From Candidatus Kapaibacterium sp. (lineage in GTDB: Bacteria > Bacteroidota > Ignavibacteria > Kapaibacteriales > WFXC01), in NCBI GenBank assembly GCA_015490805.1, contig WFXC01000002.1, forward strand, positions 98,437-162,436: a stretch of DNA of 64,000 nt, written 5' to 3'. Each line of letters opens with the position of its first letter. The stretch's first letter is position 1. Under the pieces are notes generated by a model. That model ran no database searches. It saw only the letters and a list, made by a program, of their open reading frames with translations, and had not been told where the DNA came from. The position numbers and the translations under genes are program-made. Of this stretch, positions 15,030 through 43,497 are shown in pieces.

Positions 15030-16583
15030 CTACCGGGCGTAGGCAATGCTCCGCTTCTCCCGAATCACCGTGACCCGGATTTGTCCCGGGTATTCCATCG
15101 TTTCCTCGATCCGTTTGGCGATTTCGTGCGCGATGGTATCCGCCGTCAGATCATCGATCCGTTCGGGTTCGACGATCACCCGAATTTCTCGACCCGCTTG
15201 AATGGCGTAGCTTTGTACCACCCCCTCGAAACTGGAAGCAATTTCCTCCAGCGAAGTCAGCCGTTTAATGTAATGTTCCAGCGACTCCCGCCGGGCACCG
15301 GGCCGGGCACCACTAATCGCATCGGCTGCCTGGACCAGCGCTGCGATGGGGCTAATCATCTCCATCTCATCGTGATGGGAACCAATGGCATTGGCAACGA
15401 TCGGATGCTCCCGATATCGCTTCGCAATTTCATAGCCGATCAAGGCGTGCGGACCTTCTTCCTCCACACATTTGCCAATGTCGTGGAGCAACCCTGCTCG
15501 CTTTGCCAGTCGAACATCCAGCCCCAATTCTGCTGCCATAATGGCTGCCAGGCGAGCAACTTCGATGGAGTGCGCTAACAGGTTTTGCCCGTAACTGTAG
15601 CGATATTTCATCCGGCCAATGAGGCGCACAATTTCCCGATGGACGTTGTGAATACCCAATTCGAGCAACGCCTGTTTTCCAACCTCCCGAATCTCATCCT
15701 CCATCTCTTTCTTCGTTTTGTTCACCACCTCTTCAATCCGGGACGGATGAATACGCCCGTCGCTGACCAGGCGCTCCAGTGCGCGGCGCGCCACCTCACG
15801 ACGGAGAGGATCAAAGCAGGAAATCAGCACCGCTTCAGGGGTATCGTCAATGATAAGATCCACGCCAGTAGCTGCTTCAAAGGCGCGAATATTCCGCCCT
15901 TCCCGTCCGATGATCCGTCCCTTCATCTCATCGCTGGGCAGATTGACCACCGAAACAGTGTTTTCAATCGCATAATCCGTAGCAGTGCGTTGAATCGCTT
16001 CCACCACGATCTTTTGCGCTTGCTTCTTTGCTTCTTCCCGCGCCTGATCCCGAATCTCCTTAATCATCAAAGCTGCCTCTGTTTTCGCTTCTTCCACCAT
16101 CGAATCCAGCAAATACTTTTTCGCATCTTCCCGCGACATTCCGGTAATGCGCTCCAGGCGGATAAGTTGCTCTTCCCGCAACTGCTCTACCTCTTCCATC
16201 CGCTGCTGCACCTGTTGTTGCTGCTGTTGGAGCGACTGTTCCAGACTCTGCAACTGTTTTTCCTTATTGCTGAGTAGCTCCAGCTTTCGGGTGATTCGAT
16301 CTTCTCGCTCTTTGATCTCCTTCTCATACGCTCGCAGCTTTTCGTGCCGATCCTGCATAATCTGATCAAATTCCCGCTTTTTCCGATCCCACTCCGCTTT
16401 GACTTCCAGCAGCTTTTCCTTTTTGAGAATTTCTCCTTCTTTTTCAGCATCCCGCAGGATCACTTTGGCGCGTTCTTCAGCATCCTTGATCTTCATTTTC
16501 AAGGAACGCTGCACCAGCCAATAGCCAACTCCTCCTCCCAGCAGGAAGCCAAGAATTGTTAACCCAACAATCCACCATTCCAT
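15030..16583 (-). CDS. rny: Ribonuclease Y.
   Basis: N-terminal TM helix, coiled coil, KH domain ([26 protein letters not shown]) and HD domain (LLHDIGK). Start set at ATG 16583 (MEWWIVGL...), preceded by aaggag RBS. The track start at 16625 lies inside the terminator hairpin. Confidence 0.9.
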
Positions 16584-16623
16584 TTGTTTTCTCCTTTCCG
16601 ACTTGCTGTTTGACATCATCAAC

Positions 16624-16664
16624 AAAAAAGCCGCACCATTCTGTCTGCGCTTAGAATGAAGCGG
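16624..16664 (-). terminator. Rho-independent terminator-like hairpin plus U-run, 45 nt upstream of the rny start.
   Basis: Minus strand CCGCUUCAUUCU-AAGCGCAGAC-AGAAUGGUGCGG followed by CUUUUUU. The 3' strand is also the partner of the long-range pairing above. Confidence 0.5.
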
Positions 16665-16904
16665 ATAGCTGGTAAGAACCCTTACCGGACACAGTGGGTG
16701 CTTGCCTGATTACCTTTTGCTTCCCCCGAACCCTGGGAACACCGCTACCGGTGTTCACGGTGGATGACAGCGGGCCATCCACACGCAGGGTTACTGCTAT
16801 CATCAGCAGTTGGGGCCTGCAATCAGCAACCAGAGCCAAGCTCCCTTTTCGTTGAAACTGTCGGTTCTTACCTTCGCTATAACGATCCGACAGAATGATG
16901 CGGC
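16624..16904 (-). ncRNA. Candidate structured RNA of about 280 nt between zapA and rny: a 6S-like RNA or an rny leader/attenuator.
   Basis: 5' segment GCCGCAUCAUUCUGUC (plus 16889-16904) can pair over 16 nt (one G-U) with 3' GACAGAAUGGUGCGGC (16630-16645). An inner 10-bp pairing is GGUAAGAACC with GGUUCUUACC (16863-16872 with 16671-16680). The 3' end forms an intrinsic terminator. The 89-aa ORF over this region is not protein-like. Confidence 0.35.
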
Positions 16905-16953
16905 AAAGAAGCTTTGGCACTGTTGCTGCCTGTTCAAGCTTCTATGGAAAAGA

Positions 16954-17250
16954 TCACCCATCCTCAGCAGCGGCGTCCGCAAGCCGCTGCCGAAGAAACT
17001 CAGTCATTTTCTCGATTTCCTGTTCATAAAGTTTTATCTGCAATGCCATTTGCTCGCAGCGAACATCGTATTCTTCCAACAGATTCAAAGCTGCCAAAAC
17101 GGTGACAACCAAGGTTGAAACTCGATCCTGCCGCTGCTTCATTTGCCGCATCATCTCGTCAAATCGGTGAGCCAGTCGCTGCACCCGCTGCGGGTCTTCA
17201 CACCGCAACGTATACATCTGCTCACCGATTTGCACCTGGACTGTTTCCAT
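16954..17250 (-). CDS. zapA: Cell division protein ZapA (Z-ring-associated protein).
   Basis: 98 aa. N-terminal beta region VQVQIGEQMYTLRCE followed by a long coiled coil. Size and architecture match the ZapA family. Confidence 0.6.
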   Translation of the reverse strand: METVQVQIGEQMYTLRCEDPQRVQRLAHRFDEMMRQMKQRQDRVSTLVVTVLAALNLLEEYDVRCEQMALQIKLYEQEIEKMTEFLRQRLADAAAEDG

Positions 17251-17314: not shown

Positions 17315-18217
17315 TTATTGATCTGCCGGATAGCTCGCTAAGATCTGATCTAAGCGCTGAAGCATCGCAGTAATATGTCGTTCCAGCTGCTGCTTCGCTT
17401 GCCGCTGTTCCTCCGATAATCCCCGCTGCGATGACTGCTTTATTGCAGCCAATTCACTCTGCAATGCATCAATGCGGAAGCGATAGACCTCCAGTTGCTC
17501 TTTGTACGCCTGCGCTTCCCGGTACTGTGCTTCCAGTTGCTCCAACTGGAGCTGGAGTCGGGCATTTTCTTCCGCTAAAAGTTCCACCTCTTTCCGTAAT
17601 TGCTTCGCTTCCGACTGAAGCTGCTGTTCTGCTAAGGCATCTTCCAGTTGTTGAAGCTGCTTGTGCAGTTTATGCAGCTCCTCATTTTTGCGCACGATCT
17701 CCTTTTGCGCTAAGCGATACTCATACTGCACCTGCTGCAATTGCTCCTCCCGTTGCTGGAGCGTCTGCTGCAGCTGCTTGTACTCCACACGATAATGTTC
17801 GAGCTGCCGTTCGGACTCCTCCTGCTGGTACTGCCACTGCTGGCGATCCTGTTCCCACTGCTGACGTTGCTGGCGAAGCTGCTCCAATTCCTCTCGCAGG
17901 TTCTGTTCCTGTGCACGCCGTGCCCGCTCCTGTTCCAACTGCTCCTGCAACACTCTATGGTGATGTTGCTCTAAGGCTGCCCGCGTTTTCCACTGGTACA
18001 ACTCCTGCTCCAATTGCCGAATCCGTTCCTCCTTTTCCTCCACAGCCGCTGCCAGTAGGCGATACGTTTCCAGCTCTTCAACCTGGCGCCGTAGTTGGGC
18101 GTTCTCCTCTCTCAACGCTGCGTACGCATCTGCCAGCCGCGGCAACTGCTCTCCAACTTGCTGAATAACGGTCCACAACGCTTGAAGCCGATCCTCCATT
18201 CGTCCGATTACTCCCAC
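17315..18217 (-). CDS. 300-aa Q/E/R/L-rich coiled-coil protein, possibly a ZapB/DivIVA-like division protein.
   Basis: Heptad-rich throughout. N-terminus MEDRLQALWTVIQQVGEQLPRLADAYAALREENAQLRRQVEELE resembles the ZapB (DUF904) start. Immediately upstream of and co-directional with zapA. Confidence 0.45.
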   Translation of the reverse strand: MGVIGRMEDRLQALWTVIQQVGEQLPRLADAYAALREENAQLRRQVEELETYRLLAAAVEEKEERIRQLEQELYQWKTRAALEQHHHRVLQEQLEQERARRAQEQNLREELEQLRQQRQQWEQDRQQWQYQQEESERQLEHYRVEYKQLQQTLQQREEQLQQVQYEYRLAQKEIVRKNEELHKLHKQLQQLEDALAEQQLQSEAKQLRKEVELLAEENARLQLQLEQLEAQYREAQAYKEQLEVYRFRIDALQSELAAIKQSSQRGLSEEQRQAKQQLERHITAMLQRLDQILASYPADQ

Positions 18218-43225: not shown

Positions 43226-43311
43226 CACCTGACCGTGCCCGGGGCGGGACTCGAACCCGCACGGGGAAAACTCCCCACAGGATTTTAAGTCCTGTGCGTC
43301 TACCAATTTCG
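43226..43311 (-). tRNA. tRNA-Leu (anticodon UAA).
   Basis: Minus-strand cloverleaf: GCCCGGG acceptor stem, anticodon loop CUUAAAA, long variable arm (GGGGAGUUUUCCCCG), T-loop GUUCGAGUC, discriminator A. CCA is not encoded. Confidence 0.9.
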
Positions 43312-43497
43312 CCACCCGGGCACTCTCTATGGCATTGCGAAGGTGGTAACGGATAGCCCCCGCCAGAAATTGTGCCGGCTGCCTGCCCATCCTCCGGATG
43401 AAATGGGTTCCCTGAACGGACACAGCGCTGAACTTTGTCCCTTTATCACTTCGGCCTCGCAACTAATACTTTCCATAGACGGGAAGGGGACAACATT

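Follow-up and report, generated by a model that had tools for sequence, protein, structure and literature searches.

6S RNA is a small RNA found in most bacteria, where it holds RNA polymerase in check. In Escherichia coli and Bacillus subtilis, it mimics an open promoter, and release of the polymerase driven by synthesis of a product RNA is established. In the E. coli genome, ssrS, the 6S RNA gene, is encoded on the same strand as zapA, with 41 nt between zapA and ssrS and 20 nt between ssrS and the next gene. Synthesis of the product RNA on 6S RNAs of the E. coli type unwinds the helix adjacent to the central bubble, and release is driven by a hairpin in which the freed 3' strand pairs with the 3' side of the bubble (PMC8876501). 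The refolding element, as defined in that paper, is either such a hairpin or a bubble-collapse helix.

The 6S RNAs predicted for Bacteroidetes come from the same broad phylogenetic neighborhood as the DNA described here (Bacteroidota in the wide sense). They, too, have diverged and were missed by earlier models (PMC2864571 supplement; PMC7366714). They include 6S-Flavo, the diverged 6S RNA of Flavobacteria, which constitutes the Rfam family RF01685 (PMC2864571 supplement), and the 6S RNA of Bacteroides thetaiotaomicron, which has been validated and for which product RNAs have been detected (PMC7366714). None of the papers searched connects 6S RNA with Melioribacter, Kapabacteria, or Ignavibacteria; Wehner et al. 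2014, the main survey, lay outside that search.

The window, i.e., the whole 64,000-nt stretch of DNA from a Candidatus Kapaibacterium genome that was analyzed here, contains a 370-nt gap between zapA and rny (positions 16584..16953). With a probability of about 0.85, the structured RNA in this gap is the Kapabacterium 6S RNA (ssrS), a divergent and enlarged homologue of the known ones. Taken as such, it is an otherwise ordinary housekeeping RNA, whose unusual length and branching cause standard annotation to miss it. The RNA gene is located downstream of zapA and has the same orientation, and the order zapA, ssrS, next gene is that of E. coli; the downstream neighbor is rny in the window and fau/ygfA in E. 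coli. The abundant G-U pairs in the predicted helices establish that the RNA strand is the one that encodes zapA and rny. The start codon of rny, an ATG at position 16583, is preceded by AAAGGAG. The features of the locus, all on the minus strand, are as follows.

16954..17250, minus strand: zapA, the upstream neighbor (Pfam ID PF05164, ZapA; 47.4 bits)
16630..16904, minus strand: the whole RNA, a probable divergent 6S RNA (ssrS-like) of 275 nt, from the first base of P1 to its last
16889..16904, minus strand: closing stem P1, 5' strand GCCGCAUCAUUCUGUC, which forms a duplex with 16630-16645
16863..16872, minus strand: helix P2, 5' strand GGUAAGAACC, part of a 10-bp inner helix and the predicted template for the product RNA
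16846..16862, minus strand: central bubble, 5' strand GACAGUUUCAACGAAAA, 17 nt, unpaired in the minimum-free-energy (MFE) fold and in the consensus
16812..16845, minus strand: internal stem (P3-P4), 5' strand, from GGG to CAGGCCCC (helices 3 to 6 of the covariation alignment)
16728..16811, minus strand: apical domain, hairpin A and the forked hairpin B (fold)
16696..16727, minus strand: internal stem (P3-P4), 3' strand, from GGGGGAAGC to CACCC (MFE fold, covariation)
16681..16695, minus strand: central bubble, 3' strand ACUGUGUCCGGUAAG, 15 nt (MFE fold, consensus)
16671..16680, minus strand: helix P2, 3' strand GGUUCUUACC (MFE fold, covariation)
16671..16686, minus strand: predicted release hairpin GGUAAG-GGUU-CUUACC, formed by the 3' bubble strand with the 3' strand of P2
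16653..16664, minus strand: near-copy of the P1 5' strand, CCGCUUCAUUCU, the 5' arm of an alternative local terminator hairpin
16648..16663, minus strand: side hairpin CGCUU-CAUUCU-AAGCG in the 3' strand of the closing stem (MFE fold)
16630..16645, minus strand: closing stem P1, 3' strand GACAGAAUGGUGCGGC (sequence, MFE fold, covariation)
16624..16629, minus strand: U6 tract directly after P1, the probable site of intrinsic termination
15030..16583, minus strand: rny (RNase Y), the downstream neighbor (Pfam IDs PF12072, PF00013, and PF01966, matches taken from identical or near-identical proteins)

Several other features surround this RNA. The stop codon of zapA is separated from the 5' end of the RNA by another hairpin, GAAGCUU...AAGCUUC (16907-16943, minus strand), which may serve as a weak terminator of zapA or belong to a precursor. 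Directly upstream of zapA lies an open reading frame of 300 residues (17315-18217, minus strand) with a very high content of Q, E, L, and R, which is coiled-coil-like and has no Pfam match. Apart from the zapA-rny RNA, a single RNA gene was detected in the 64 kb, that of tRNA-Leu (anticodon taa; 43235-43321, minus strand). In three Kapabacteria loci, rny is followed by a gene of the metallo-beta-lactamase fold labeled PF23023 (Anti-Pycsar Apyc1), at positions 3530-4444 of L128, 3087-4040 of L135, and 3057-4010 of L136. In the window, its place is taken by a methyltransferase-like open reading frame, whose counterpart in L127 has a weak match to Methyltransf_24 (PF13578). A promoter for the zapA-rny RNA cannot be assigned: the TTTG found just 5' of P1 in some Kapabacteria is incompatible with a start site that leaves P1 intact.

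The first-pass annotation described end-to-end complementarity in this gap, with 16889-16904 pairing with 16630-16645 and an inner helix of 10 bp, and these pairings are exact in the sequence. P1 comprises 16 bp, including one G-U pair, with a duplex energy of -28.7 kcal/mol, and both P1 and P2 are present in the minimum-energy structure predicted by RNAfold. The 334-nt segment has an MFE of -147.2 kcal/mol, and 100 shuffled sequences were all less stable (z = -7.36). The overall shape is that of a long imperfect rod, which consists of P1, a short middle helix, P2, the bubble, the internal stem, and the apex, with the central bubble open between P2 and the GGG/CCC-bounded internal stem. The structural hallmarks of 6S RNA, namely, a closing stem, a large single-stranded bubble, and an internal/apical stem, are found both in the MFE fold of the window and in the consensus of 41 sequences. 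The same rod, closing stem, large central bubble, and internal stem characterize the Rfam 6S family (RF00013).

Relatives of this RNA come from three sources. A scan of genomes for rny provided loci from Ignavibacteria and Melioribacter, whose zapA-rny gaps share with the window the motifs AAGAAC, GGG..UUGaCUC, AUUrCAGGCCyC, GGAAGyAAAA, GGCA..CCCrC, and GGUUCUU. A DNA pattern derived from the most conserved stretch retrieved 46 metagenome loci, 43 of which contain true homologues, each preceded by the end of zapA and followed by the start of rny. Ten more Kapabacteria loci were obtained through RNase Y homologues with 62 to 79% identity, and all ten consist of zapA, an RNA-containing gap of ~290 to 560 nt, and then rny. 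Thus, a homologous RNA is found in the zapA-rny gap of every fetched Kapabacteria or Ignavibacteria locus whose gap was examined. The nearly identical relative, L001, is a Candidatus Kapaibacterium metagenome-assembled genome with 99% identity in RNase Y.

The case for 6S RNA is made through these relatives rather than by the window sequence alone. Rfam searches at the gathering threshold over the whole 64 kb report only a tRNA, and a search of 16500-17050 at E ≤ 10 yields no 6S RNA, only chance matches (ylbH and freshwater-2, over the start of rny). The shorter Melioribacter copy (L004) matches RF00013 along the whole length of the model (positions 1-187) with 39 bits and an E-value of 8.5e-7, and this is its sole match among 4227 Rfam families. 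Two further relatives, L097 and L114, also give full-length matches, of ~28 bits. Neither the window nor these relatives (39, 28.3, and 28 bits) reach the curated gathering cut-off for RF00013 of 46.4 bits, which is an operational criterion and not a biological feature, and annotation at that threshold therefore misses them. All three alignments treat the extra apex as an insertion in the terminal loop. This unscored insertion probably accounts for much of the shortfall, and compared with those of the three matching relatives the insertion in the window is the largest. The 6S-Flavo (RF01685), SRP RNA, RNase P, and tmRNA models have no match, even at E ≤ 10, in the window region or in L004, and the same non-6S Rfam families have no match at E ≤ 0.1 in the 19 loci scanned whole. 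A resemblance of CAGGCC...GGAAGCA to helix 8 of SRP RNA was considered and dropped, as no SRP model matches.

MAFFT alignments, either full length or with the apex deleted, put the outer stems in the wrong place. A covariance model, R1, was therefore built from 14 Ignavibacteria sequences that aligned well once the variable apex had been removed, and all sequences were re-aligned to it. R1 matches the window at 16635-16899 (minus strand) with 57 bits (E = 2.7e-9), its sole match in the 64 kb. It also matches nine of the ten fetched Kapabacteria zapA-rny loci and all other zapA-rny loci searched. The exception, L128, falls below R1 detection at E ≤ 0.01, yet its RNA is recognizable by eye. It has no match in the 73 rny loci searched that come from other phyla, Chloroflexota and Clostridia among them. 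In L097, L100, L103, L105, L109, L118, and L124, R1 also matches the opposite strand with ~27 to 31 bits, as expected for a rod-shaped RNA; the true-strand scores in these seven loci are 140 to 186 bits.

Against E. coli ssrS, R1 gives a weak match (8.8 bits, E = 0.26). A second model, R2, covers the central domain (P2, bubble, P3, and P4) and was built from 16 sequences including the window, which it matches at 16670-16872 with 98 bits. R2 aligns with E. coli ssrS over its full length and in register, a modest match (20.1 bits, E = 0.0038, a rough E-value), and the next best match in the E. coli ssrS locus has only 8.1 bits. Statistically significant similarity to known 6S RNAs is found in both directions, from the Rfam model to the relatives and from the family model to E. 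coli, with in-register alignments each way and with shared conserved nucleotides flanking the bubble and the apex. The 5' strand of P2 in the window is the counterpart of the "downstream duplex" of E. coli 6S RNA and aligns with its CUGAGCC.

Covariation across 41 sequences supports the same architecture. The alignment was fitted to the R1 model, and such fitting favors pairing. Standard pairs occupy 92.0% of its cells; shuffled alignments reach 81.4%, and none of 500 attains the observed value. When the partners are slid by 1 to 3 columns, pairing drops to 39 to 48%. Changes on both sides are seen in 30 of the 47 pairs, and the covariation score is 0.399, compared with at most 0.085 for the slid partners. 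In P1, all 15 modeled pairs show both-side changes; in the rows of the window and the other Kapabacteria, an inner part of P1 and not its ends was fitted to the model, and the long P1 of Kapabacteria is only partly in register. P2 shows both-side changes in 5 of 8 pairs, and 99% of its cells pair. These compensatory changes, for which the first-pass annotation had proposed to test an alignment of the zapA-rny region, support both helices. The slid controls and the existence of very different stem sequences, such as the 23-bp P1 of L129 (ACGUACCGUAC.GGUUCACCGUA), indicate that the signal is real despite the model fitting. The GGG/CCC and CAGGCC/GGAAG elements of the internal stem are invariant in the family and align with the 6S consensus. 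Thus, the structure is kept by compensatory changes across Kapabacteria and Ignavibacteria. A cross-bubble pairing, ACAGU/ACUGU, seemed covariation-like at first and was rejected; it would cross the release hairpin.

A further property shared with 6S RNA of the E. coli type is the potential of the 3' bubble strand, where the 5' strand of the closing stem is nearly repeated, to form a release hairpin with the 3' strand of P2 or of the closing stem. The 3' bubble and the following 3' strand were folded alone for the 41 sequences. Release hairpins of 9 to 14 bp with z of -3 to -6 are found in most Ignavibacteria; z is below -1.5 in 30 of the 41 sequences, with a mean of -3.0, and the hairpin sequences vary between groups. 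The hairpin of the window comprises 6 bp and is by itself indistinguishable from shuffled sequences (z = -0.37), and several other Kapabacteria likewise have a weak one. When nt 28-45, on the template strand, are blocked, the predicted fold of the window includes the hairpin. A refolding element of the kind known from 6S RNA is present in most sequences of the family, and the window hairpin alone is not significant. The start of the E. coli product RNA, which we take to be U44, aligns with C16860 of the window in the R2 alignment (the position of U44 in the locus was computed). By analogy, a product RNA is predicted to start near C16860 with the sequence 5'-GUCGGUUCUUACC...

The apex is where the RNA of the window departs from canonical 6S RNA. 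It comprises ~85 nt (-43.8 kcal/mol, z = -5.3) and consists of two adjacent hairpins, the second of which is forked, in contrast to the single terminal loop of canonical 6S RNA. Two adjacent hairpins, 28 to 90 nt in total and with a mean z of -3.9, are found at this place in all 45 sequences compared, without any sequence conservation; the fork in the second hairpin is found in the clade of the window and in L128. Compensatory changes are seen in a comparison with L001, where two double changes occur among the 14 columns that differ, and in a comparison with L127. Relative to E. coli 6S RNA, some Kapabacteria, including the window, L128, and L135, have an additional side hairpin or segment on the 3' side of the closing stem. 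The substitutions in L001 and L106 sit in the loop of the 16648-16663 hairpin, and L128 has a side hairpin of a different sequence at the equivalent place. The two-hairpin apex and the side hairpin of the closing stem are lineage-specific additions. To our knowledge, these two elements and the length of 275 nt, compared with ~184 nt in E. coli, are atypical for 6S RNA.

The 3' end differs between the two groups. A U-rich run follows P1 in nine of the ten other Kapabacteria loci, including L127 to L131, L133, L135, and L136; the tenth, L132, is ambiguous. In Kapabacteria, transcription most likely ends at P1 and the U-tract, which would make the RNA a separate gene, and in the window P1 and U6 suggest a defined 3' end for the predicted small transcript. 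Most Ignavibacteria copies have no U-tract, and their RNA is probably cut from a longer transcript, by analogy with the ssrS-fau transcript of E. coli. In L102, L115, L119, and L123, AAGCUUCUUUUAAACGA at the 3' end of the zapA coding region can pair over 13 to 14 bp with UCGUUUAGUGGAGG in the ribosome-binding region of rny, which encloses the whole RNA. This pairing could be a processing stem or a mask over the rny ribosome-binding site.

The location of the RNA directly upstream of rny and on the same strand, in every locus examined, has a different potential explanation, also raised in the first-pass annotation. The RNA might be a cis-acting leader or attenuator of rny, in which the 3' strand picks the local terminator, the closing helix, or another partner and thereby sets read-through. 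Like an attenuator, the window has a 3' strand that can pair with either of two upstream partners beside a U-tract. The near-copy that provides the second partner, noted in the first-pass annotation as the 5' arm of a terminator, is real: CCGCUUCAUUCU shares 11 of 12 bases with the 5' strand of P1, and at ≤ 1 mismatch this 12-mer has three sites in the 64 kb, all within the RNA, against an expectation of 0.53 per window. The local hairpin that it forms with the 3' strand of P1 has an energy of about -12 kcal/mol in the window and -8.9 kcal/mol in L001 and L106. The rny ribosome-binding site that lies ~20 to 35 nt downstream of the RNA in most Ignavibacteria, with no U-tract in between, and the complementarity of the zapA end to it in four loci could also suit a regulatory leader. 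In attenuators, though, the alternative is an antiterminator, whereas here both partners give terminator-like hairpins that abut one U-tract, so that neither is an anti-terminator and the choice between them would not switch termination on or off. Moreover, the alternative pairing is kept only in the closest relatives: the local hairpin is shorter or partial in L128 and absent from L127 (the nearest outgroup), L129, L130, L131, L133, and L135. When it is enforced, the RNA folds at -117.6 kcal/mol, compared with -133.3 kcal/mol for the closing-stem fold, i.e., it is 15.7 kcal/mol less stable. A consensus terminator scan reported no candidates because its loop limit excludes both hairpins. The distance from the RNA to rny varies from ~45 to 170 nt in Kapabacteria, the U-tract is mostly missing in Ignavibacteria, and conservation and covariation are found in the 6S-like core, which has its homologues in a family of trans-acting RNAs, and not in the 3' end. 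Control of rny by attenuation is therefore improbable. Of the mutually exclusive pairings proposed in the first-pass annotation, the near-copy and the local hairpin exist in the window, but a conserved choice between terminator and anti-terminator is not seen among the relatives. As a matter of speculation, the local hairpin might aid termination in this sub-lineage while transcription is under way and the long-range stem has yet to form.

That every Rfam score lies below the curated cut-off, together with the unusual branched apex and size, would also fit an undescribed class of structured RNA, whose similarity to 6S RNA merely reflects the score that any long rod with an internal loop would obtain. 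Such a chance resemblance is hard to reconcile with matches that are full length and in register, with an E-value of 8.5e-7 in a comparison with all 4227 families in which 6S RNA is the sole match, and with a reciprocal search that singles out ssrS within the E. coli locus. The GGG/CCC, GCA.GCC/GGAAGC, and GGUUC elements that flank the bubble and the apex are shared with 6S RNA, as are the synteny with zapA and the release hairpin of the E. coli type, which makes a separate class quite improbable. Still further from the data is the idea that the gap encodes an 89-residue protein (positions 16651-16920) or is a functionless 3' untranslated region of zapA. The 89-codon frame does exist, and in L130 a comparable public gene call of 92 residues (1134-1412), also lacking a Pfam match, lies over the RNA. 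As stated in the first-pass annotation, though, the frame is not a credible gene: it has no Pfam match, a 1-nt indel shifts it in L001 and L106 (95% identical), stop codons interrupt it in L127, and the substitutions track base pairing and not codons. This explanation is extremely unlikely, and both the L130 call and the window frame seem to be spurious genes that overlap a structured RNA.

The preferred reading, a 6S RNA next to zapA, was one of two offered in the first-pass annotation, and it is upheld by the RF00013 matches in relatives, the match of R2 to ssrS, the covariation, and the gene order. By analogy with the known systems, the rod with its open bubble would mimic an open promoter and occupy the active site of the housekeeping sigma-RNA polymerase holoenzyme as growth slows. 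On outgrowth, the polymerase would start in the 5' strand of the bubble and copy on into P2, producing a short product RNA. Copying would free the 3' strand of P2, which would refold with the near-copy of the 5' strand located in the 3' bubble (GGUAAG/CUUACC), and this refolding would let the polymerase go. The two-hairpin apex and the side hairpin are predicted to lie outside the polymerase footprint. An added role is doubtful: a 6S RNA with a second job, in which the 3' end sets transcription or translation into rny (through the choice between P1 and the near-copy hairpin or, in Ignavibacteria, through base pairing between the end of zapA and the ribosome-binding site of rny) or the apex recruits an extra partner. 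If this were true, the supply of RNase Y would be tied to the state of the polymerase-sequestering RNA.

The element is best regarded as a previously unannotated 6S RNA with a clade-specific branched apex and not a new kind of element, and the accepted view of 6S RNA function is unchanged. It fills an annotation gap, as searches at the Rfam thresholds report no 6S RNA at this locus in Kapabacteria and Ignavibacteria. The zapA-ssrS gene order, known from Proteobacteria, is also found in this distant group and may serve as a guide to other diverged 6S RNAs. The clade-wide apex in the form of a three-way junction, 28 to 90 nt in size and placed on a 6S scaffold, informs which parts of 6S RNA can grow.
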